This document shows, piece after piece, positions 1 to 11,511 of a DNA stretch of 11,511 nt. The notes below the pieces were generated by a model. The model worked only from the letters and a program-made list of their open reading frames with translations, searched no databases and was not told the origin of the DNA. Each line of letters opens with the position of its first letter. Within the stretch, counting starts at the first letter, position 1. Both the position numbers and the translations under genes were made by a program. Source of the DNA: a virus (taxonomy: Duplodnaviria; Heunggongvirae; Uroviricota; Caudoviricetes); IMG/VR virus record IMGVR_UViG_2579778919_000009, positions 1-11,511 of that record; one strand, written 5' to 3'.

Positions 1-495
1 GTGTCTGATTCTATGAGTTACGCTGTGCTAGTTGCCGCAACTCTATTTATGGGGATAGGGTTGCAGATTGCGTGGTTCTTTTTTTCTAGTTTTATTAAAC
101 GCAAAAGAATTGAATCAAGGATATCTGAGATTTCTATTGCTATAGGGAAAAATGCTGAAAATCCAGAGAATGAGGCCTGCGCACTGAATTACCTTAAAGA
201 AAAGTTTTCCCCTGAAAAATTTGAAAATAGAATTACTGATGCTCTTGGATTGGTAATATCAGTAATTCATATGCCACTAAGTTTGCTGATAACAGTGTGG
301 TACTTCGCCATGATCGCCGGAAGAATATTTGGTTTCATGAATATAGAGCCTGTAGTTCTTTGGGTTCCAATGATACTGCAACTGTTGTTAAGCGTTGCTA
401 TCTTTATTTTTTCTGTTTTTATAAAAATTGTCTTTGGAAGATACCCCGGAGAAGCTAAGGGATTTAATAAAGAATTCATAAAAACTATAAAATAA
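1..495 (+). CDS. Small AT-rich integral membrane protein (about 3 predicted TM helices); 5' end at or beyond window edge; possible moron / superinfection-exclusion-type gene
   Basis: ORF open from base 1 (GTG; first ATG at 13) to TAA at 493-495. Hydrophobic stretches [76 protein letters not shown]. Visibly AT-rich compared with the rest of the window. Convergent with the 613-aa virion protein gene. No family recognised by eye. Confidence 0.5.
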
Positions 496-517: not shown

Positions 518-2359
518 CTACTGCCGGGTCGCTTCGTTAGCTAAGAGCGGGCGCACGGCAGTAGCAGCCTGATTTAGCGCTCTTTCATAAGCTGGCGTTC
601 CAGCTTTAGTGTTTGCCAGACGTAAGAGCGCATTCCTTGCTGCTTTGGACTCATACAAACGCATCATTGCACCAAAACCAGCCTCAAGCCCCATTGATAC
701 TCCAAGAGTCGCAGTTGCGCCAATCGTCCTTATCCTGTTGGCTTGTGATTGCCCCGTCTGAGTTACTACATTTGCGGTGTCTGACCTTGCTGTTTGCTGT
801 AGAACTTCATGAAGAGCATCGAGCTCTTTCATGTGCTTTCCAGAAAAAATAGTGTTGTAAATTTCACCGCCTGACTGAGATTTAAGCTTATTAACTTCAG
901 TGATGAACTTGGCTGGAGAGTCACCGGCCTTTTCCGCTATTTTGCTGACGTAAGCTGCACGCATAGCATCTTTCCCTTTATCATCCAATGCGCTCCAGAT
1001 TCGTTTCACGTCAGATGGTTTTCTGCTTAATACAACGGTATTTATAAGTTCAGGACTGGCTTCACTGCTTGCCTTGTTGAGCTTGTTAGCAATGTTTTTA
1101 TTAAGCACCTTATTATAAACGTTTGCATAATCTGAATTTGCTTTAAGGTATTTTGCTGCGTCTGATGCACCGAGGTTTTTAGCAACTGCGTTACGAAGGT
1201 CTTTTGACATTGCATTCTCTACCATATTGGTAGCTGCTTTTGCCTGGTTGGGGAAGACCATAGCATCTCCCTGAACATTAGATCTAAATGCTGTTCTGTG
1301 CTGACGCAAGAGATCAAACGTAACATCCAAATCAGTTGCAGGGTTTGCTAATTCTTCGCGTAGGTTACGCAAGGATGTAAGCAGGCTTTGATTGGCAGAC
1401 GTCCCAAGCCGTTCCTGTCTTGCGATCGCTGTATTCAGAGCATTCATAGTGTTTGTGGTATCAACTGCGGCATTCCCCATTTTATTGGTGACGTCATTGA
1501 TAACAGCGCCAGCGGCATCCTTCCGTCCCCTTAACGTGGTGGTCAGAGATTTCACCACATCATCCGGGTTGTACTCACCAAAACGGTCAAAATAATTACT
1601 TACCAACTTACTACGCGTTGCATATTGCTCCGCTCGCTTTGAGCCTGTCCCGAGCAAAGCCCCCTCGGCATCCTGAGTAAGGCCGCGAGTGAAAGCATTT
1701 TTCGGCGGGATAACATCAGATGTCATTGGTGTCACGCCCATCGATTCTGATGTGGCAATTTTCTTCGCCACTTCTGGCGCAATATCACCTTTTATAGCCG
1801 TTATTCCACGCCCTATTCCCTTTGCTGCTGCGGAAAGAACCCCCTGAGCGGCAAGGTTAACTCCGGCATTTTTAGCTGCATTTTGTGCGAAATCGCCTTT
1901 CTGATTTGCGGCCTCTGCCAGTGATCCAATAGCCATGCTTCCTGCCGTTCCAACTCCTGGAACTAAATACCCACCAATTGTTTCACCGGCTTGTGCGTAT
2001 GGGTCTGTCGGTCTGTCTACTGGACGATAAACATCATCCAAAACCTTGGGTCCACCAAGCCCCTGACTGATTGCATTAATCAGACTTGCGCCGCCCTGCA
2101 ATACGTCAAATGGTATGTTTACCAGACCACGACCAGCCTGCTCTGCAATTTGCCCTGCACTTTGACCACCTGTGAGCCAATCGCCAGCTTGTTGCATCAA
2201 TGATGGTTCTTCACGTGCTGGTTCATTATTGGCCTGATTAACTGTTTGTTGCTGAACAGCCTGACCAGCAAAATACTCATCAATGGCGGTGCCAATATCT
2301 TCCGTGCTCGTACCATCAGGGAAGGTAAATGTCTTACCGTTTGCAGTTACTTTCATCAT
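518..2359 (-). CDS. Phage internal virion / DNA-ejection (DNA transfer) protein, P22 gp16-like, 613 aa
   Basis: Long ORF rich in Ala/Gly/Gln/Asn with a Gly/Ala-rich segment ([23 protein letters not shown]...). Size and position (after a gp20-like segment, before a small membrane protein gene) match the P22 gene 20 - gene 16 arrangement. Start ATG overlaps the upstream stop (ATGA), suggesting translational coupling. Family assignment is from memory, not a search. Confidence 0.6.
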
Positions 2360-3933
2360 TCCACCGTAAATTGAATGCCTGATTTTGAGGTATATGATCC
2401 GGATTGACTCTGCTGCTGTTGGGTATTTGTCGGTTGTTGGCTATTGCTCTGTTGTTGACTATTTGCAACACTTGAAACCACCAAAGCATCATAAACGCGA
2501 CCAGACTGACCACGTAATGAGTTATATTGGCCCTGCATTTTTCGCATTTTTGTTTCAGTAGCAGCCTTGGAATCACCAGGCTGAGGCAGGTACATTTTGG
2601 AATACTCCTGCATCTCTGGCAGAGTAATTGCTGCACCTGTTTCTGGGCGCAAAATTGCATACAAGGCGTCTCTCGCATTTACCATATATTGCTGCTCCGC
2701 TGGTGATAGGCTTAAATTTGCAATAGTCCCATCACCAAGAGAGCGATTTATTAATGCAACTCGCTTAGGGTCAATGCTTTTACTAAGCTGATTCATTGAG
2801 TCCATTGAATCTTTTAATCGCAAAGCAAATCCTGCCGCCTTCTTGGAACCCTCATTAGCCTTATCTATGATGCTTTGCGCTTGTGGCAAACTAATTGGTT
2901 TAATGCCATCACCAGATATAGGTTGGTTTAGTTTTCCGGCTTCCTCGCTGCCATCGGTGTAATACTTAGTTACCGAGCCATCAGGATTGGTTTCAACCTT
3001 AAGTAATTTCTTAGCATTGGGATTAATTCCCGCCGCTGCCGCAAATGCCGCTGCACCATCTGGATCCGCCTTTAACATTTGCGCGTACTGATTGTAATTC
3101 TGCATTGCGGCTGTTGGTGCATATGCTGACGTTAACGCATTTGCTCGGCTAATATCCTGCCCTCTCGCCTGAAGTGCTTCGCTGGCCTGATTGCTGCGGA
3201 TTGTCTCTGCCAGTCTGCCTCGGTCAATCTCACGACCAGCTATCTTGTCCTGAACAGCAAACGCCTTTTCTGGCCCAAGTGCACCGAGAGACATAGTAGT
3301 CAGCATGTGTGATAGCTGCTCTGGATTCTGGATACCTGTCTGAATCATCCAGTCAGCATTAGCCCCCACACGATTTAACCTGTCCTTGTTGTCAGTAATG
3401 AATTTACTGTAGGCTTCCGGTCCCTGAGAAAGAGCGACGTTAGCCCTCATGGCTAAATCGCCCATATCGTTGCGTTGCTGCTCATTAAGACCGGAAAACG
3501 CCTGTTGTGCCTGTGCAACAAACGCTGGATTTCCAGATCTGATACTGAGAACGTTTCGTCCAGCAACTGGAGAGAGTTCGACGGTGGCATCATTGCCCAT
3601 GCCGGAGGCGCTGGAGGTTTCGGCTGAGGATGGCACAGGGCATTTTCCTTTGACGAGCACCCTGCCACCATTATCAAGCTTGCGCCGAAGAGCATCATTT
3701 TCAGCTTTCGCATCAGCTAACTCCTTCGTGTATTTAGCATCGAGTGCATCAGCATCACGCTGGCGCTGCTGCATGTCAGTAATGGTGGCAGTCGCCTGCT
3801 TCAGCTCACTGACTTTTTTATCACGCTGCTCTTTGTAGGCGATGGCATTATCACGGTAATGATTGACCGCCCATGACAGGCAGACGATGATGCAGATAAC
3901 CAGAGCGGAGATAATCGCGGTGACTTTGCTCAT
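2356..3933 (-). CDS. Chimeric ORF: Rz-type i-spanin N-terminus (about 120 aa) fused in frame to about 400 aa of ejection-protein-like sequence (P22 gp20-like)
   Basis: N-terminus [30 protein letters not shown]...[19 protein letters not shown] closely matches lambda Rz as I recall it (TM anchor plus coiled coil). Rz is about 150 aa, but this ORF runs on for 525 aa with Ala/Gln/Asn/Ser-rich sequence and no Rz-like C-terminus. Rz start overlaps the R stop (ATGA). Confidence 0.6.
3453..3713 (-). CDS. Rz1-type o-spanin lipoprotein embedded in the +1 frame of Rz; C-terminus extended/altered by the same junction
   Basis: [22 protein letters not shown]... has a lipobox-like signal (VAGC) followed by a proline-rich [16 protein letters not shown] segment, as in lambda Rz1. 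It is 86 aa against about 60 for lambda Rz1; the tail after about residue 55 is unrelated. Confidence 0.55.
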
Positions 3934-4268
3934 ACCTCAACCTCTCTGACCGTTCCGCCTGCTTCTTTGAATTTTGCAATCAGGCTGTCAGCCTTATGCT
4001 CGAACTGACCATAACCAGCGCCCGGCAGTGAAGCCCAGATATTACTGCAACGGTCGATAGCCTGACGGATATCACCGCGATCAATCATCGGTAAAGCGCC
4101 ACGCTCTTTAATCTGCTGCAGTGCCACAGCGTCCTGGCTTTTCGGAGAGAAGTCTTTCAGTCCAAGCTGCTTACGGTAGGCATCCCACCAACGGGAAAGA
4201 AGCTGGTAACGTCCGGCGGCTGTTGATTTGAGTTTACAGGCATAACCCTGTACAACATCAGGAGGCAT
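3930..4268 (-). pseudogene. R: Endolysin R (lambda-type lytic transglycosylase) C-terminal fragment; N-terminal about 55 residues including the catalytic region missing
   Basis: KLKSTAAGRYQLLSRWWDAYRKQLGLKDFSPKSQDAVALQQIKERGALPMIDRGDIRQAIDRCSNIWASLPGAGYGQFEHKADSLIAKFKEAGGTVRE is near-identical to the C-terminal about 100 aa of lambda R from memory. The first 11 codons (MPPDVVQGYAC) are unrelated and are encoded by the sequence that forms the upstream/RBS region of the opposite-strand replication gene. Confidence 0.85.
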
Positions 4269-4273
4269 CCAGT

Positions 4274-5101
4274 ATGGGGTATGTCTCTATACACCGCCAG
4301 TTTATGGACAGCAGGCTCTATAAGGACTCTCAGGCAGTACATCTTTGGCTTCACTTAATCCTCAAGGCTAATCACGAATCTACTGTCGTCAATACGGATA
4401 TCGGTCCGATAACTGTTGATCGCGGTCAGATGATAACTGGACGCCCGTCGCTGGTCAGAGAAACATTCATCCCCGACAACAAAGTTCGGAGCTTATTACG
4501 GACTTTTGAGTCGAAAGGTATGCTTAATATTTGCTCGATGGGGAAGAAATTTAGCCTGTTTACAATCGTTAAATATGACGATTTTCAGGCAAAAAATTGT
4601 CCAACGGTTGTCCAACAGTTGTCCAACGCAAACACCAGTAATGGTGCGGCTCTCAGCGGAGATTGTCCAACGGTTGTCCAACGGTTGTCCATAAACAATA
4701 ATATAAATAATATCTCTAATACTGACGTATTAGAGAGTGCTACAGCAGACAAAAAGTCTGACAAGAAAAAACCTTCCGTCAGCTGTCAGGATGTTGTCGA
4801 TGCTTACCACGAAATCCTTCCTGAAGCGCCAAGAATCCGCGCACTGAATGACAAGCGTAAAAACCAGATCCGAACGTTCTGGCGCAAAGCCGGAGTGATA
4901 ACCCGCCAGCTTGACGGGCATGGGTTCACGATGCAGGACTGGAGAAATTATTTGAGCTACGTAGGCGAAAATTGCCGATGGATGTTCGAAGAGCGTCCAA
5001 ACCATCAACGCGGAACTGTCTGGCACAAAAAGGGATTTGATTTCCTGCTTAACGATAATACCTACCTGAAAGTTCGTGAGGGTGAACACGATGACCGATA
5101 A
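4274..5101 (+). CDS. Replication initiator protein (lambda O / P22 gp18 functional class) with origin iterons inside its coding sequence
   Basis: Good RBS (GGAGG about 8 nt upstream of ATG 4274). Origin-type iterons and an AT-rich region sit mid-gene, as in lambda O. The stop overlaps the start of the downstream helicase gene. Confidence 0.7.
   Translation: MGYVSIHRQFMDSRLYKDSQAVHLWLHLILKANHESTVVNTDIGPITVDRGQMITGRPSLVRETFIPDNKVRSLLRTFESKGMLNICSMGKKFSLFTIVKYDDFQAKNCPTVVQQLSNANTSNGAALSGDCPTVVQRLSINNNINNISNTDVLESATADKKSDKKKPSVSCQDVVDAYHEILPEAPRIRALNDKRKNQIRTFWRKAGVITRQLDGHGFTMQDWRNYLSYVGENCRWMFEERPNHQRGTVWHKKGFDFLLNDNTYLKVREGEHDDR
4597..4695. repeat. Origin iterons: two clusters of three tandem 11-bp repeats (TTGTCCAACGG / TTGTCCAACAG / TTGTCCAACGC, then TTGTCCAACGG x2 and a degenerate TTGTCCATAAA)
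   Basis: Direct tandem repeats read at about 4597-4629 and 4663-4695, separated by about 33 bp. They encode the repetitive linker CPTVVQQLSN...CPTVVQRLS of the initiator. Confidence 0.75.
4696..4740. other. AT-rich putative DNA-unwinding region with short palindrome CTCTAATA-N6-TATTAGAG next to the iterons
   Basis: Sequence ATAAACAATAATATAAATAATATCTCTAATACTGACGTATTAGAGAG lies immediately downstream of the iterons, the typical lambdoid ori layout. Confidence 0.5.
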
Positions 5102-6146
5102 TTTTTATGCGCCGCCCCATAGCATCGAGGCAGAGCAGGCGGTGATTGGTGGATTGCTTCTGGATGATGACAGCAGTGAGCGCGTCCAGAAGGTTCTGGC
5201 GATGCTGAAGCCTGATTCATTTTACAGCCGGCCACACAAAATCCTTTTCGAAGAAATAACCAGAATGCACCGGGAGCAAAAGCCAGTAGATGGCCTGACG
5301 CTTTTCGATGAACTGGAGCGTAAATCGTTAACTGTGTCTGTTGGCGGTTTTGCTTATATCGCTGAGATCGCAAAGAACACGCCAAGCGCAGCAAACATCG
5401 TTGCCTATGCAATGCAGGTTCGTGAAACCGCAATGGAACGCTACGCCATCAACCGTATGACTGAAGCGACGGAATTGCTCTATTCCCGCAACGGAATGAC
5501 TGCAACGCAGAAGTACGAAGCTATTCAGTCGATTTTCACGCAACTGACAGACCATGCAAAAACCGGATCGCGTCGCGGCCTTCGTTCATTTGGTGAGGTC
5601 ATGGAAGACTGGGTTAGCGACCTTGAGAAGCGATTTGACCCGTCAGGCGAACAACGAGGAATGAGCACAGGGATCCCATCGCTGGACAGGATGCTGTCAC
5701 CGAAAGGTCTGGTGAAAGGCTCTCTGTTTGTCATTGGCGCTCGCCCTAAGATGGGGAAAACGACGCTATACAGCCAGATGGCAATCAACTGCGCAGTGCA
5801 TGAGAAAAAGCCCGCTCTGATGTTCAGCCTTGAAATGCCAGGTGACCAGATACTGGAAAAACTGGTAGGGCAGAAGTCTGGTGTTAACCCGAATATTTTT
5901 TACCTTCCGGCGACAAATGACGCTGATGACGGCTATCAGGGTGATTACGATGGTGACTTCAACAGGGCGATCGAAACAGCCAATCGCTTGAGTGAAATCG
6001 ACCTGCTTTACATCGACGACACGCCGGGATTATCTCTGGCTCAAATCGTCAGCGAAAGTCGTCGAATCAAGCGAGAAAAAGGATGTGTTGGCATGATTCT
6101 GGTCGATTACAGGGAGAAGGCGCATGAGACTCGAAAGCGTAGCTAA
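5091..6146 (+). pseudogene. DnaB-family replicative helicase (P22 gp12 class), C-terminal about 110-120 aa missing
   Basis: N-terminal DnaB signature NFYAPPHSIEAEQAVIGGLLLD, Walker A GARPKMGKTT, Walker B-like MILVDY. The ORF stops about 10 codons after Walker B, with an unrelated tail (REKAHETRKRS) that overlaps the Q start region. Likely true start is ATG 5091 (the ORF track starts at 5076). Confidence 0.7.
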
Positions 6147-6603
6147 ATTTCATTCGCCAAAAAGCCCGATGATTAGCGACTCACCACGGGCTACAGCTTC
6201 TGACTCTCTTTCCGGTACTGATGTGATGGCTGCTATGGGGATGGCACAATCACAGGCCGGATTCGGGATGGCTGCATTTTGCGGTAAGCACGAACTCAGC
6301 CAGAACGACAAACAAAAGGCTATCAACTATCTGATGCAATTTGCACACAAGGTATCGGGGAAATACCGTGGTGTGGCAAAGCTCGAAGGAAATACTAAGG
6401 CAAAGGTACTGCAAGTGCTCGCAATATTCGCTTATGAGGATTATTGCCGTAGTGCCGCGACGCCGGGTGCAAGATGCAGAGATTGCCACGGTACAGGCCG
6501 TGCGGTTGATATAGCCAAAACGGAGCAGTGGGGGAGAGTTGTTGAGAAAGAGTGCGGAAGATGCAAAGGTGTCGGCTATTCAAGAATGCCAGCAATCAGC
6601 TAA
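6124..6603 (+). pseudogene. Q: Late-gene antiterminator Q (lambda Q type), C-terminal about 50 aa missing/replaced
   Basis: MRLESVAKFHSPKSPM...CRDCHGTGRAVDIAKTEQWGRVVEKECGRCKGVGYSRMP matches lambda Q from memory, including the CxxC...CxxC zinc motif. It ends after about 159 aa (lambda Q is about 207). No PR'/qut or holin follows. Confidence 0.75.
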
Positions 6604-6605
6604 CT

Positions 6606-6766
6606 TAACGACGCCCATGTTTCACTCCTACTTTGGCTAGTCTGTAAACACCAACAAGGCGCTCTGCGAACGCCCTGTTATTTGCTGCGGCTACCACTAA
6701 TCCCTCAGGTGAATCAGGGTGTCGAATCTCTTCTTTTTCCTGGTATTTCTTACGACGTTTTGTCAT
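6606..6766 (-). CDS. Small basic ORF (53 aa, MTKRRKKYQEKEE...) occupying the position of the 5' end of the replication gene downstream of cII/oop
   Basis: SD-like GGAGT about 4 nt upstream of the ATG. The start codon overlaps the -10 of the oop-type promoter on the other strand, which is where the O start sits in lambda. It ends at the junction with the inverted Q fragment. No recognisable family. Confidence 0.3.
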
Positions 6767-6769
6767 AAT
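6741..6769 (+). promoter_or_regulatory. Po-like promoter for oop RNA (TTACGA - 17 nt - CATAAT)
   Basis: Sigma70-like hexamers with 17-nt spacing, placed just upstream of the oop-homologous sequence. Confidence 0.5.
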
Positions 6770-6776
6770 TACTCCT

Positions 6777-6853
6777 GTAGATTGATCCAGTAATGACCTC
6801 AGAATTGCATATCAATTTGCTTAAAATCCTCGGTGGCGGCCGGGGATTTTTTC
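6777..6853 (+). ncRNA. oop: oop-like antisense RNA overlapping the 3' end of cII, ending in an intrinsic terminator
   Basis: GTAGATTGATCCAGTAATGACCTCAGAATTGCAT...CCTCGGTGGCGGCCGGGGATTTTTTC closely resembles lambda oop RNA as I recall it (the block GATCCAGTAATGACCTCAGAA appears identical). Terminal hairpin CCUCGG/CCGGGG plus U-tract. Antisense to the last about 18 codons of cII. Confidence 0.7.
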
Positions 6854-7095
6854 TTTGTGATTCCATCCAATGCATACTTAAAAGCCCTGCTAATCGGACT
6901 GATGTCTGATGCCATTCCGAAAGCACACAAGACCGAAGCAATAAACCTCCAGTCCGTTCTGCTTATCTTCGATTCATGACAGCCAATCATCTTTGCCAGA
7001 CCGCGCTGGGTAAGCGTTGACAGGTTGATGAGTAAATCAGTTTCAGCGCGATCAATTTCTCGCTGTGTTGGCTTGCTATAACTTGCTTGTGTCAT
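6799..7095 (-). CDS. cII: CII-family transcriptional activator
   Basis: HTH region (LAKMIGCHESKISRTDWRFI) and C-terminus (KKKSPAATEDFKQIDMQF) resemble lambda CII (KSQISRWKRDWI, NKKRPAATERSEQIQMEF). Sits downstream of cro and nutR, as in lambdoid phages. Confidence 0.8.
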   Translation of the reverse strand: MTQASYSKPTQREIDRAETDLLINLSTLTQRGLAKMIGCHESKISRTDWRFIASVLCAFGMASDISPISRAFKYALDGITKKKSPAATEDFKQIDMQF

Positions 7096-7106
7096 TTGTT
7101 AATTTT
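7073..7106 (+). promoter_or_regulatory. PRE-like CII-dependent promoter (TTGC-N6-TTGC around the -35 region, -10-like TAATTT), reading antisense through cro toward cI
   Basis: TTGCTATAACTTGC direct-repeat tetramers with 6-nt spacing lie inside the 5' end of cII on the opposite strand, the same layout as lambda PRE. Confidence 0.45.
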
Positions 7107-7179
7107 CCAATAGTGAATAGTTAGTTGAAAGGTATGCGTGGAAACGCATATGGCCTTAGTTGGTCAGATATCTTGGGGC

Positions 7180-7225
7180 TCGCTTTGTCAGCGACGTAGG
7201 ACGAATGTCCATTGTGAAAAGAGCG
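7180..7225 (-). promoter_or_regulatory. nutR: boxA (CGCTCTTTT) followed by a boxB hairpin of the P22 type (loop GACAAA)
   Basis: On the - strand, just downstream of the cro stop: CGCTCTTTTCACAATGGACATTCGTCCTACGTCGCTGACAAAGCGAGC. The boxB stem-loop matches the P22-type GCGCUGACAAAGCGC rather than lambda GCCCUGAAAAAGGGC. A 7-bp stem hairpin at about 7133-7150 may be part of tR1. Confidence 0.55.
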
Positions 7226-7232
7226 GTGTTAC

Positions 7233-7433
7233 TTATGCAGTTGTTTTTTTGTTACTTGGGAAGGGCTTTATTTCTTCCGCATAAACGCTTCCATCAGCGT
7301 TTATAGTTAAAAAAATCTTTCGGCCTGCATGAATGGCCTTGTTAATCGCGCTTTGATATACGCCGAGATCTTTAGCCGTCTTGGTTTGCCCAAAGCGTAT
7401 TGCATAATCTTTCAGGGTTATGCGTTGTTCCAT
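7233..7433 (-). CDS. cro: Cro repressor
   Basis: 66-aa product [66 protein letters not shown] is essentially lambda Cro (one or two substitutions, from memory). Confidence 0.95.
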
Positions 7434-8247
<814 letters not shown>

Positions 8248-8278
8248 TTGTTTTATTTTTCACGTAATAGGATGATTT

Positions 8279-8620
8279 ATGACACAATTTCAACTTGCAT
8301 TAATCGCTAGAGAAGTTGATGGAGAAGTCATCCATCTTCGCACCAAAGACGGATACATCAATGCCACCGCGATGTGCAAGTCTGCGGGGAAGCTACTTGC
8401 TGACTATACACGACTAAAAACAACACAAGATTTTTTTGATGAATTATCACGCGATATGGGGATTCCCATATCGGAGTTAATTCAATCATTTAAAGGCGGA
8501 AGAGCAGAGAATCAAGGGACTTGGGTTCATCCAGACATCGCAATTAATTTAGCTCAGTGGCTATCTCCAAAATTTGCAGTGCAAGTATCGAGATGGGTGC
8601 GTGAGTGGATGTCAGGTTAA
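8279..8620 (+). CDS. KilA-N domain protein (113 aa) in the rexA/rexB position, co-transcribed with cI
   Basis: YINATAMCKSAGK...ENQGTWVHPDIAINLAQWLSPKFAVQVSRWV fits the KilA-N domain pattern as I recall it. SD AGGATGA upstream of the ATG; only about 31 nt separate it from the cI stop, with no terminator between. Confidence 0.65.
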   Translation: MTQFQLALIAREVDGEVIHLRTKDGYINATAMCKSAGKLLADYTRLKTTQDFFDELSRDMGIPISELIQSFKGGRAENQGTWVHPDIAINLAQWLSPKFAVQVSRWVREWMSG

Positions 8621-8659
8621 AGAGCGCCTGCCGAACTCCCTATCCACCTTAAGCGGTAT

Positions 8660-8965
8660 ATGACAAACCGAGGCAGAGTTCCTCATACGCACTTTTCTAT
8701 GCTTAATGAACTGACGTTTAACTTGGTTGCGCCACTTGAACAGGCCGGATATACGCTGCCAGAAAAAATGGTCCCTGATATTTCAGAGGGTAGGGTTTTC
8801 TCGCAATGGCTCCGTGACAACCGGGGGGTTGAGCCGAAGACATTCCCAACATATAACCATGAGTACCCAGATGGCCGGACATTCCCGGTACGTCTATACC
8901 CAAACGAATATTGCAGATTTCAAACAATACTTCAACGAAGTGTGGCTGCCTCAGTACGCTCCTAA
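8660..8965 (+). CDS. Hypothetical protein, in the same frame as the KilA-N ORF and separated from it by a single TAA; probable frameshift near 8890-8910, after which the alternative frame continues to 9038
   Basis: 8279 and 8660 are in the same frame, with 13 sense codons and one TAA (8618-8620) between them. Weak RBS before 8660. The overlapping ORF 8727..9038 has a protein-like C-terminus (NIADFKQYFNEVWLPQYAPKYFAERDQRALTLIEKIML). Confidence 0.45.
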   Translation: MTNRGRVPHTHFSMLNELTFNLVAPLEQAGYTLPEKMVPDISEGRVFSQWLRDNRGVEPKTFPTYNHEYPDGRTFPVRLYPNEYCRFQTILQRSVAASVRS

Positions 8966-9047
8966 ATATTTTGCTGAACGAGACCAAAGGGCATTGACGT
9001 TGATTGAGAAAATCATGCTACCTGACCTTGATTCCTAAATGTTATTC

Positions 9048-9073
9048 CCGGCCACAGAGCCGGGTTTTCTTTG
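9048..9073 (+). terminator. Intrinsic terminator closing the cI / KilA-N operon
   Basis: CCCGGC-CACAGA-GCCGGG hairpin (6-bp GC stem) followed by TTTTCTTT, about 10 nt after the 9038 stop. Confidence 0.7.
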
Positions 9074-9112
9074 CCTCACGATCCCCCTCACCCAAGAACA
9101 CATAACCAATTG

Positions 9113-9138
9113 TATCTATTTGAAAATAAATAGATACA
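9113..9138. repeat. Perfect 10-bp inverted repeat GTATCTATTT-N6-AAATAGATAC between the terminator and OL3
   Basis: Read directly; AT-rich, so more likely a protein-binding site than a terminator. Confidence 0.6.
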
Positions 9139-9225
9139 ACTCACTAAACATAGCAGTTCAGATCTCTCACCTACCAAACAATGCACCCCTGCAAAAAATA
9201 AATTCATATAAAAAACATACAGATA

Positions 9226-9295
9226 ACCATCTGCGGTGATGAATTATCTCTAGCGGTGTTGACATAAATACCACTGGCGGTGATACTAAACACAT
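9226..9295 (+). promoter_or_regulatory. Left operator OL3-OL2-OL1 with PL promoter (-35 TTGACA, -10 GATACT), transcribing rightward in this window
   Basis: TATCTCTAGCGGTGTTGACATAAATACCACTGGCGGTGATACTAAACACATCAGCAGGACGCAC is near-identical to lambda PL/OL1/OL2 from memory. An OL3-like site AACCATCTGCGGTGA lies about 20 bp upstream. Confidence 0.9.
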
Positions 9296-9355
9296 CAGCA
9301 GGACGCACTACTCACCAGGGCGGTGAATATACAACGATTCAAATATGAATCTACG

Positions 9356-9370
9356 GCGCTGACAAAGCGC
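9356..9370 (+). promoter_or_regulatory. nutL boxB hairpin, P22 type (GCGCTGACAAAGCGC)
   Basis: 5-bp GC stem with GACAAA loop, about 65 nt downstream of the PL start and about 130 nt upstream of the N-like start codon. No convincing boxA identified. Confidence 0.55.
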
Positions 9371-9498
9371 AATAACCAAAGTGAACTTTGGGGTGAATGC
9401 AGAAGCTAACCTTCTCGGCGGAGGCGCTTTGCAATGATTACGCTACCGGAGTTAGTCGCCCGGCTGTATTCACCGCCAAAGTTCACCAGGAGGTCTAT

Positions 9499-9666
9499 AT
9501 GACACGCAGAACTCAGTTCAAAGGCAATTCACGTTCTCGTCGTCGTGAGCGTTTAAAGGCAAAGGCATTAGCTAACGGCGTACTGGCCCGCGAAGAAGCA
9601 ATAAGTTCAGAAGTATTACACCGCCCTACGCCATCATCAATGTTGCGGCGATCGGCATCACCTTAA
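9499..9666 (+). pseudogene. N-type antiterminator, N-terminal arginine-rich motif retained (about 35-40 codons), remainder lost at a deletion junction
   Basis: Strong SD (CAGGAGG) before ATG 9499. MTRRTQFKGNSRSRRRERLKAKA resembles the P22 gp24 arginine-rich motif (GNAKTRRHERRRKLAIER, from memory). Only 55 codons against about 100 for N proteins; the 3' part overlaps the RecT frame. Confidence 0.55.
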
Positions 9667-10364
9667 ACCCAGCCAGCAAACTTGCTTATCTAGTTCCGCG
9701 CGACGGCATGGTTTGCCTTGATATCAGTTATATGGGATTGCTCCATATTGCAATGGAGTCTGGTGTTATCTCATGGGGTCAGGCAAAACTTGTTCATGCT
9801 AACGATACCTATGAGTCAAACGGGCTTGATAAAGCACCAACCCATAAATACAACGCCTTCGGTGATCGTGGTGATATCGTTGGCGTTTACTGCACAGTTA
9901 AGACGCCAGCAGGTGATTATCTAACGGAAGAGATGAGTCTGGCTGAAATTGAGGCTGTAAGGAAAACAAGCAAGGCGGCATTCAGCGATAAAGGACCATG
10001 GGTAAATCACTGGAATGAGATGGCGCGAAAGACGGTCGTAAAGCGTGCAAGCAAGTATTGGCCTAAGGCATCACGTCTTGATAGTGCTATTCACGTACTA
10101 AACGAAGAAGAAGGTGTATGGACTGAACCAGTTATGCCGTACAAATCAGAGGAAGATATCCGCGAAGATGAACGGAAACGCCAGCAGGAAATAACGGATA
10201 AAGCACAACTTCTTTGTGATGAAATGGCTCAGGCAGAAAACATGGATGATTTGAAGCGATATTTTGCAGAAGCATATCGCCTGACATCTGGAATGAAATT
10301 GCAGCATAACGTACAAGCCATTTACATAGAATGCAAAGCGAAACTGGAGGTTGCCAGTGAGTAA
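9576..10364 (+). pseudogene. recT: RecT-family single-strand annealing protein lacking about 50-60 N-terminal residues and any start/RBS of its own
   Basis: Frame open from 9576. ...YAIINVAAIGITLNPASKLAYLVPRDG... and KGPWVNHWNEMARKTVVKRASKYWPKA align to E. coli RecT (FVSAIVQCSQLGLEPGSALGHAYLLPFGN; GPWVTHWEEMAKKTAIRRLFKYLP). First in-frame Met is at 9708. Confidence 0.75.
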
Positions 10365-10839
10365 ACTATATGAAATAGCCAATGAATACGCAAAATTGAT
10401 GGATTCAGATTTAGAGCCAGAGATGATTGCTGACACAATAGAAGGCATGGAAGGAGAATTTACCGATAAAATAGAGCAACTTCTTTCCGTCATTAAAAAT
10501 GAATCTGGTTATGCTGAACGCCTCAAGGAAGAGGCAAAGTCACTGAATGAGCGAGCCGCAGTAATTCAAAATAAGATTGACAGCATCATATCATATATAG
10601 CGTCATCGCTTGAAATGGTAGGCAAGAAAAAGATTAGAGCAGGTATTCACCAGGTAACAATCCGCAAACCGTCAGAAATTGTAGAAATAATCGACTCAAG
10701 CGCCCTTCCTCCTGAATACGTTGAGTTTGAAACAACAATTAAAGCCGACAAACTGGCAATCAAACACCAACTAAAAGCAGGAATAAATATCCCCGGCGCT
10801 CAACTCAAAGTTGGGAAACCTTCACTTCTTATCAAATAA
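10351..10839 (+). CDS. Siphovirus Gp157-family protein (recombination-module accessory protein)
   Basis: LYEIANEYAKLMDS...DTIEGMEGEFTDKIEQL...GKKKIRAGIHQVTIRKPSEIVEIIDSSALPPEYVEF...LKAGINIPGAQLKVGKPSLLIK fits the Gp157 family pattern as I recall it. Probable start is GTG 10357 (GGAGG 6 nt upstream); it overlaps the RecT stop. Confidence 0.7.
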   Translation: MPVSKLYEIANEYAKLMDSDLEPEMIADTIEGMEGEFTDKIEQLLSVIKNESGYAERLKEEAKSLNERAAVIQNKIDSIISYIASSLEMVGKKKIRAGIHQVTIRKPSEIVEIIDSSALPPEYVEFETTIKADKLAIKHQLKAGINIPGAQLKVGKPSLLIK

Positions 10840-10850
10840 CGGTATCGCCT

Positions 10851-10985
10851 ATGAAAAAGACTCCATGGGAGAAATGGGAAGTCGATTTCTTGCGCGAAGT
10901 AGCGGCGACAAGGCCATATAACAACAAACCCTGTCGCTGCCACTCGCGCAGCAAAATCAGAGGTAAGGAGATCAAGACTTACGGC
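10851..10985 (+). other. Short remnant ORF (MKKTPWEKWEVDFLREVAATR...), 5' end of an unidentified gene running out of frame into int-derived sequence
   Basis: ATG 10851 opens a 44-codon frame. From about 10905 onward the DNA is int sequence read in a different frame. Confidence 0.25.
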
Positions 10986-11511
10986 TGACGAATACCTGAA
11001 AATTTATCAAGCAGCAGAATCATCACCATGTTGGCTCAGACTTGCAATGGAACTGGCTGTTGTTACCGGGCAGCGAGTTGGTGATTTATGCGAAATGAAG
11101 TGGTCTGATATCGTAGATGGATATCTTTATGTCGAGCAAAGCAAAACAGGCGTAAAAATTGCCATCCCAACAACATTGCATGTTGATGCTCTCGGGATAT
11201 CAATGAAGGAAACACTTGATAAATGCAAAGAGATTCTTGGCGGAGAAACCATAATTGCATCTACTCGTCGTGAACCGCTTTCATCCGGCACAGTATCAAG
11301 GTATTTTATGCGCGCACGAAAAGCATCAGGTCTTTCCTTCGAAGGGGATCCGCCTACCTTTCACGAGTTGCGCAGTTTGTCTGCAAGACTCTATGAGAAG
11401 CAGATAAGCGATAAGTTTGCTCAACATCTTCTCGGGCATAAGTCGGACACCATGGCATCACAGTATCGTGATGACAGAGGCAGGGAGTGGGACAAAATTG
11501 AAATCAAATAA
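10903..11511 (+). pseudogene. int: Integrase (lambda Int type), catalytic domain only; N-terminal arm-binding and core-binding domains deleted; no xis
   Basis: Int frame open from 10903: ...GHITTNPVAATRAAKSEVRRSRLTADEYLKIYQAAESSPCWLRLAMELAVVTGQRVGDL...HELRSLSARLYEKQ...HKSDTMASQYRDDRGREWDKIEIK. This is near-identical to lambda Int residues about 168-356 from memory and keeps the catalytic residues, but about 170 N-terminal residues are absent. Confidence 0.9.

Follow-up and report, generated by a model that had tools for sequence, protein, structure and literature searches.

The locus examined here raises the question of what is encoded at positions 9499–10364 of an 11,511-nucleotide stretch of viral DNA (IMG/VR virus record IMGVR_UViG_2579778919_000009, called the window in its full length), where a short open reading frame (ORF) resembling the lambdoid antitermination protein N runs directly into sequence for the annealing protein RecT: a reduced pair of working early genes, or the remains of a longer operon. 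What lies here is very probably an ordinary scar, left by a deletion within the early-left (PL) operon of a lambdoid/P22-like prophage of Escherichia coli that has become defective. The plus strand of the window is the direction of lambda leftward (PL) transcription, and the following features make up the scar and its immediate surroundings.

9499–9666, plus strand: N', a pseudogene ORF of 55 residues; codons 1–44 (9499–9630) are native N of the H-19B/HK97 type, codons 45–55 and the TAA are RecT DNA.
9628–9629, plus strand: deletion junction with a 2-bp microhomology, AC, present in N codon 44 as well as in RecT codon 56, from three-way alignments with E. coli 1008S19 (left) and E. coli 7/2 (right).
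9630–10364, plus strand: RecT', a pseudogene with codons 57–300 of 303, ending in a premature TAA at codon 301.
10357–10839, plus strand: full-length Gp157 / Mu Gam-like gene of 160 residues that starts with GTG, preceded by the Shine-Dalgarno sequence GGAGG.

In the alignments, N-bearing phages match the window as far as 9629, and RecT-bearing phages match it from 9628 onward. The window tracks N until ...CCCTAC and then continues with RecT from GCCATCATC..., the AC being common to both parents. The left relative, E. coli 1008S19, is 100% identical over 9200–9629 and its prophage is 99.97% identical over 6728–9629; with flanking identities of 98–100% over hundreds of bases, chance is excluded. 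On the N side the break falls in codon 44, where ACT becomes ACG and the threonine is kept, and on the RecT side it falls between codons 56 and 57 of 303. The two parts are joined out of frame, and the N frame stops at the TAA at 9664–9666 after 11 codons of RecT DNA, which bears out the sequence-only reading of this locus, according to which an N frame ends inside RecT read in another frame. That reading had proposed alignment with full-length N and RecT as a check, and it is this alignment that places the junction at 9628–9629. Its own two reservations, that N homologues might be only about 55 residues long or that RecT homologues might natively start near the methionine codon at 9708, fall away as well: the closest N has 127 residues, and the closest RecT has 303 residues and starts 82 residues before that methionine.

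The left half of the scar retains a recognizable part of N. Residues 1–44 of N' are identical to the 127-residue N of HK97 and of E. coli 1008S19, whereas residues 45–55 (PSSMLRRSASP) have no counterpart in N and represent RecT DNA read in the wrong frame. N' is preceded by the Shine-Dalgarno sequence AGGAGG (−11.5 kcal/mol), and the arginine-rich, boxB-binding motif 12-RSRRRER-18 is intact; this motif and residues R3, S11, R15, and R18 agree with H-19B N (PMC3526286). The PHROGs family 'anti-termination protein N-like' matches with E=1e-9. In Pfam N_peptide (PF25694), N' covers profile positions 6–55 of 100 with 25.8 bits and so misses the curated cut-off of 27.9 bits, compared with 57.8 bits for full-length HK97 N. 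Thus, the claim that N keeps only its arginine-rich N-terminus was right about the truncation, but the 44 native residues include part of the central region too. In comparison with the N loci of H-19B, HK97, and mEp234, residues 1–44, the Shine-Dalgarno sequence, PL with its operators (PL/OL), and the nutL boxA and boxB are the same, whereas residues 45–127 of the 127-residue protein are swapped here for 11 out-of-frame residues, and with them the C-terminal RNA-polymerase-binding region is absent. In H-19B N, read-through falls from 34% to 8% when residues 78–127 are deleted, and a protein without its C-terminus does not work at a second terminator distant from nut, all that it retains being some action against Rho in the vicinity of nut (PMC3526286). 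N' could still bind boxB through its arginine-rich motif, but, as it lacks the C-terminal RNA-polymerase-binding region, it should not be expected to support processive antitermination.

Other ways of reading the N' frame were considered and rejected. An 89-residue version extended from the ATG at 9397 was discarded, because it is the start at 9499 that follows the AGGAGG and corresponds to where N is annotated to begin in HK97 and mEp234. An N'-RecT fusion made by frameshifting is not possible because the sole slippery heptamer in the N' frame, TTTAAAG at 9552, leads into a −1 frame that stops at 9570–9572, upstream of the junction. A 367-residue protein that had clustered with N' (P0003) is an unrelated membrane permease and owes its place there to a clustering artefact.

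The right half of the scar belongs to RecT beyond doubt as to family but lacks the beginning of the protein. RecT' is identical in 240 of 244 residues to the RecT of E. coli 7/2 as well as to HK140 gp41, scores 88 bits with Pfam RecT (PF03837) against a cut-off of 24, and matches the PHROGs RecT-like annealing family with E=6e-64. However, it spans profile positions 60–186 of 198, whereas full-length HK140 RecT (303 residues) spans 5–186, so that about 55 of the 198 family positions are missing and the core with its N-terminal lobe is incomplete. The sequence-only reading had RecT begin at about residue 60; the derivation from RecT stands, and the actual first codon is 57. Relative to RecT of the HK140 type, codons 1–56 are deleted together with the native start, and the first in-frame ATG, GTG, or TTG is the ATG at 9708, which is Met83; none occurs between it and the upstream stop at 9570–9572. 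Shine-Dalgarno pairing before 9708 amounts to −2.1 kcal/mol, versus −11.5 kcal/mol for N' and −10.5 kcal/mol for Gp157. Non-canonical starts upstream of 9708 were also considered and rejected, ATT and ATC codons being the only ones there. At the other end, a C-to-T change at 10362 turns RecT codon 301 from CAA into TAA (10362–10364), by which the last three residues are lost; the change is synonymous in the overlapping Gp157 frame (AGC to AGT, serine). The overlap of the RecT stop with the start of a full-length Gp157 gene is the same as in HK140 and in the prophages of E. coli 042 and 7/2.

For a structural view of the missing part, full-length HK140 RecT was compared with the protein sequences in the PDB. 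Nothing matched at the default threshold, and with E values up to 10 LiRecT (7UB2) alone appeared, at E=0.0044, an alignment that permits rough mapping only. In this mapping, Met83 falls near residue 106 of the 7UB2 chain, beyond most of the N-terminal lobe. In LiRecT, the helix bundle of this lobe (residues 34–109) makes up one of two hydrophobic cores in the filament interface, above the DNA groove (PMC9772228). The sequence-only reading had considered that an N-truncated RecT might be made from the methionine at 9708. As there is no Shine-Dalgarno sequence, the family profile is entered at position 60 and the N-terminal lobe is mostly gone, a functional truncated annealing protein is unlikely, and the product from Met83 would be made poorly, if at all, and would not be expected to anneal DNA.

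Which sequence of events joined the two halves can be judged from a prophage with a parent-like arrangement. In E. coli 7/2, the gene order is cI, two ORFs, an HK97-type N, ral, an ORF in the position of cIII, kil, a 102-residue ORF, RecT, Gp157, and the next gene. On that locus, the breakpoints fall at 6449 and 8087, equivalent to a deletion of 1637 bp. Because the same types of N and RecT occur there in the same order and 1637 bp apart, a single deletion is sufficient, in agreement with the proposal of the sequence-only reading that one event took the C-terminus of N, the genes in between, and the N-terminus of RecT. According to this scheme, illegitimate recombination at the 2-bp microhomology would have removed about 1.6 kb, comprising N codons 45–127, ral, the ORF in the cIII position, kil, and the small ORF (as judged from the closest relative of the same order) and RecT codons 1–56. 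It would have left behind a cI-repressible PL/OL with nutL, the 55-codon N', a RecT' without a promoter or start codon of its own, and an intact Gp157 gene.

The alternative that survives best, although we consider it unlikely, is that two different lambdoid phages, co-resident or superinfecting, recombined illegitimately to give the junction, with PL, N, and the immunity region coming from one and RecT and Gp157 from the other, or else that several deletions followed one another. The left side is indeed closest to E. coli 1008S19, whose prophage has a Rad52-type recombinase instead of RecT, and the right side is closest to phages of the HK140/Dewey type, which bear a different N; moreover, lambdoid genomes are mosaic and the window has several further rearrangement junctions. 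The gene order in E. coli 7/2, however, with N and RecT 1.6 kb apart, makes a single deletion enough and simpler. Functional mosaic joints kept by selection fall at gene boundaries, whereas deletions typically give joins like this one, out of frame and inside both genes.

The control elements around PL and the neighbouring regulatory genes are the following.

9225–9287, plus strand: lambda-type left operator and promoter (PL/OL), from a consensus scan and gapless alignment to annotated mEp234.
9225–9241, 9245–9261, and 9269–9285, plus strand: operators OL3, OL2, and OL1, respectively, with positions transferred from mEp234.
9304–9312, plus strand: nutL boxA CGCACTACT, transferred from mEp234 (where it is called 'putative') and identical in HK97 and mEp234.
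9356–9370, plus strand: nutL boxB hairpin GCGCT-GACAA-AGCGC, an exact pattern match that agrees with the nutL boxB annotation of mEp234.
7180–7194, minus strand: nutR-type boxB TCGCT-GACAA-AGCGA, from a 2-mismatch pattern search, with stem pairing kept.
7534–8247, plus strand: lambda-type cI repressor, intact, 237 residues, with Pfam HTH_3 and Peptidase_S24 domains.
7233–7433, minus strand: cro.
6799–7095, minus strand: cII.

The sigma-70 consensus scan places the −35 hexamer of PL, TTGACA, at 9259–9264 and the −10 hexamer, GATACT, at 9282–9287 with a 17-bp spacer, and the transcript would start at about 9294. The hexamers are overlapped by three 17-bp operators and the cognate cI is present, repressor binding itself being a prediction. 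OL2 differs from HK97 and mEp234 by a G-to-A change at 9252, and E. coli 1008S19 has the same base. Cognate nut sites for N lie downstream of both PL and PR: in addition to nutL, the boxB at 7180–7194 sits between cro and cII, where nutR is expected. The count of boxB patterns is weak by itself, as at least two matches were obtained in 13 of 200 shuffles. The cI protein is annotated as a 237-residue LexA family protein in E. coli 1008S19. Hence the intact CI and the retained nut sites described by the sequence-only reading were both recovered.

In a lysogen, cI and its operators would keep PL off. On derepression, transcription from PL would pass through N', RecT', and Gp157 and could reach the remnant of an integrase gene farther downstream. 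No terminator-like hairpin was found on the plus strand between 9300 and 11511, from which read-through to Gp157 is deduced; Rho-dependent termination may occur within the untranslated RecT' stretch. The placement of Gp157 on this transcript by the sequence-only reading is matched by a gene that is full length. Pfam Sipho_Gp157 (PF05565) matches over profile positions 1–162 of 162 with E=4e-36 and 125 bits (cut-off 28.6), and the PHROGs family 'Mu Gam-like end protection' matches with E=2.5e-53, whereas Pfam Phage_Mu_Gam stays under its threshold (17.2 versus 28.3 bits). Its Shine-Dalgarno pairing is −10.5 kcal/mol, as compared above, and the gene is called at this place in sister assemblies too. 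In contrast to Gp157, N' and RecT' are best read as dead genes, that is, as probable pseudogene fragments of known families.

The distribution of the scar was followed in assembled genomes. Ten independent NCBI assemblies, named Escherichia coli (strain SCD1, for example), carry it with 99.9–100% identity across 9200–10950, and 4 of the 10 match the window over all 11,511 bases. By exact-protein look-up, the element in these assemblies is flanked by bioA/ybhB on one side and by ybhC-ybhJ-ybhI-ybhH-ybhD-pgl on the other, which is the lambda attachment site; in 4 of the 10 the junction lies on a contig of more than 1 Mb, and the chromosomal flanks are alike in all 10. The exact N' protein occurs on 199 contigs and the exact RecT' protein on 266, and one IMG/VR metagenome contig also bears the N'-RecT' junction. 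None of 5,426 complete E. coli genomes has the junction, although 1,077 of them bear one side or the other, and the two sides were never found in one record among these genomes and 50,697 phage records. In the complete genome nearest by chromosomal flank (99.9% identical), this attachment site is occupied by another prophage, which is intact. A scan with the 31-nt junction sequence gave no match in the GTDB species-representative genomes, a negative that is uninformative because one genome represents each species. As none of the 5,426 complete genomes has the junction while 1,077 bear one of its sides, the junction is, judged by this distribution, derived and not ancestral. The ten assemblies and the contig counts show it to be lineage-wide in one E. 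coli lineage. Its absence from the complete E. coli genomes also makes the junction sequence a convenient lineage marker.

Sister assemblies differ in other parts of the element. Two of them (loci L006 and L010) are without the equivalent of window positions 6110–7341, which comprise the Q fragment, cII, and part of cro, and in a third (locus L007) the left 6.3 kb are gone and a tailspike-like gene adjoins ybhB. The N'-RecT' junction is unchanged in all three.

A quite different explanation would see in the scar a domesticated module in which N' serves as a boxB-binding peptide and/or RecT(83–300) as an annealing protein, both expressed together with Gp157 from a PL derepressed in the SOS response. 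We regard this as very improbable. In its support, N' has a strong Shine-Dalgarno sequence, an intact arginine-rich motif, and cognate boxB sites in nutL and nutR; cI, PL, and Gp157 are intact; the N' and RecT' reading frames are unbroken in all 10 assemblies; and the N-terminal domain of H-19B N, bound to nut, can by itself hinder Rho locally, near nut (PMC3526286). However, the assemblies are near-clonal at 99.9–100% identity, for which unbroken frames are expected by default. N' is devoid of residues 45–127, and even the smaller deletion of 78–127 is severely defective; RecT' has no Shine-Dalgarno sequence, has lost about 55 of 198 profile positions and the filament-packing lobe, and bears a further nonsense change. 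Sister strains, in addition, keep losing neighbouring parts of the element. A particular version would make the scar an SOS-inducible module whose N' occupies the boxB of its own transcripts or of those of superinfecting phages of the H-19B/HK97/Stx type and so acts as a Nun-like decoy or a local shield against Rho; its chances appear just as slim. The retained Shine-Dalgarno sequence, arginine-rich motif, and nut sites are consistent with a boxB decoy, nothing positively supports one, and we would give the idea very little credence. If it were true, the decoy would be expressed only on inactivation of cI.

That the junction is an assembly chimera, or that both genes are natural short forms, can be given practically no weight, since nothing was found in its favour, the thought arising only from the many junctions within 11.5 kb, while the same junction recurs in 10 independent assemblies (four with contigs of more than 1 Mb and the same flanks) and in a metagenome contig, the exact proteins recur on the 199 and 266 contigs, and the closest homologues have 127 and 303 residues.

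The reading as a deletion scar in a defective prophage thus remains the preferred one, and several points should be held against it. The figure of 1637 bp and the list of lost genes are derived from a relative that is 94–98% identical and is not the true parent, and early-left regions of lambdoid phages are mosaic. The sister assemblies are almost clonal, and therefore their intact small ORFs say nothing about selection in either direction. At E=0.0044, RecT aligns only weakly with LiRecT, the relative whose structure has been solved. Finally, the repression of PL, the read-through, and the lack of translation of RecT' are all predictions made from the sequence.

Downstream of Gp157, the element ends in a second junction and a cut integrase gene.

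10851–10916, plus strand: HK140 gp39-like gene, 5' 22 codons, ending at a second junction with a 7-bp overlap at 10910–10916.
10917–11511, plus strand: integrase remnant with its 5' end cut, from about codon 157 of 356; first ATG at 11047.

Here, the match with HK140 and E. coli 7/2 extends as far as 10916, and a lambda-site integrase gene is matched from 10910 onward. At this second microhomology junction, codon 22 of the gp39-like gene is followed, in a different frame, by int from about codon 157 of 356. The remnant is 99.0% identical to the 3' 602 bases of the integrase gene adjoining ybhC in NZ_LR536431.1, and Pfam Phage_integrase matches it over profile positions 28–168 of 172. The element has no xis and therefore cannot excise.

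Further rearrangements lie on the left side of the window. On the minus strand, 2356–3933 is a single in-frame ORF of 525 residues that fuses Rz to an injectosome translocase; it matches Phage_lysis at profile positions 1–114 (the N-terminus of the Rz spanin) and Inj_translocase at 85–217 (P22 type, C-terminal part). This fusion looks like another deletion scar, in which all terminase, portal, head, and tail-accessory genes were removed. The block at 4234–6595 (plus strand), which contains replication and late-regulator genes, has been inverted with respect to cro/cII and the lysis genes, as judged by comparison with HK542. It comprises the O gene, a DnaB-like helicase gene up to about codon 340, and roughly the first 157 codons of Q; its breakpoints have a 2-bp overlap at 4234–4235 and a 10-bp overlap at 6586–6595, and the nin region is deleted inside it at 6110/6111. 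Both the holin gene and the 5' part of the endolysin gene have been lost. Within the O gene, a stretch at 4615–4673 that encodes PTVVQ(Q/R)LS repeats varies in length, with a gap of about 36–59 bp in one sister assembly and in the IMG/VR contig (loci L014 and L019), and these repeats may be origin iterons.

Genes for protection against other phages are found in varying states of preservation. A bstA-type abortive-infection gene at 8279–9038 (plus strand) lies between cI and PL, the known position of BstA, and is split into three ORFs.

8279–8620, plus strand: ORF with a KilA-N domain.
8660–8965, plus strand: ORF matching BstA profile positions 160–226.
8871–9038, plus strand: ORF matching BstA profile positions 237–272.

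The broken bstA is followed by a tImm-like terminator hairpin at 9047–9064. At the left edge of the window, positions 1–495 (plus strand) hold an ORF of the SieA superinfection-exclusion type; it has the Pfam family SIEA and 188 residues in sister loci, and its 5' end lies beyond the window. Judged by its gene content, the element is a grounded, decaying prophage, which is the usual picture of routine decay. The loss of N and kil would leave such a prophage harmless and non-inducible, and the truncated int, the absent xis, the lost head genes, and the inverted replication block agree with a disarmed prophage.

By their descriptions, the cryptic prophages of E. coli K-12, Rac, DLP12, Qin, and e14, are likewise grounded remnants that have kept some regulatory genes and phage-borne accessory genes, with truncation or loss of those needed to excise, to lyse or kill the host, and to build the particle, as here. 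Unlike them, the present element is located at att-lambda, has a different gene content, retains a complete lambda-type cI/cro/PL/PR switch, and was found in none of the 5,426 complete E. coli genomes. Its layout of repressor, PL/nutL, and recombination genes in a non-excising prophage at att-lambda is similar to that of the engineered, defective lambda prophages that serve in recombineering (cI857-PL gam-bet-exo, as in DY380). The element differs from these in that it is natural, its N and annealing genes are truncated, and its module is predicted to be inactive.

With regard to annotation, the 55-residue 'antitermination protein N' and the 218-residue 'RecT' that databases list for this E. 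coli lineage are two halves of one scar, for which annotation as pseudogenes is due. Beyond annotation the significance is small. For lambdoid phages it is a clean example of disarming, in which N and kil would have been lost in one step, so that delayed-early expression and the host-killing gene are gone while the immunity switch survives.

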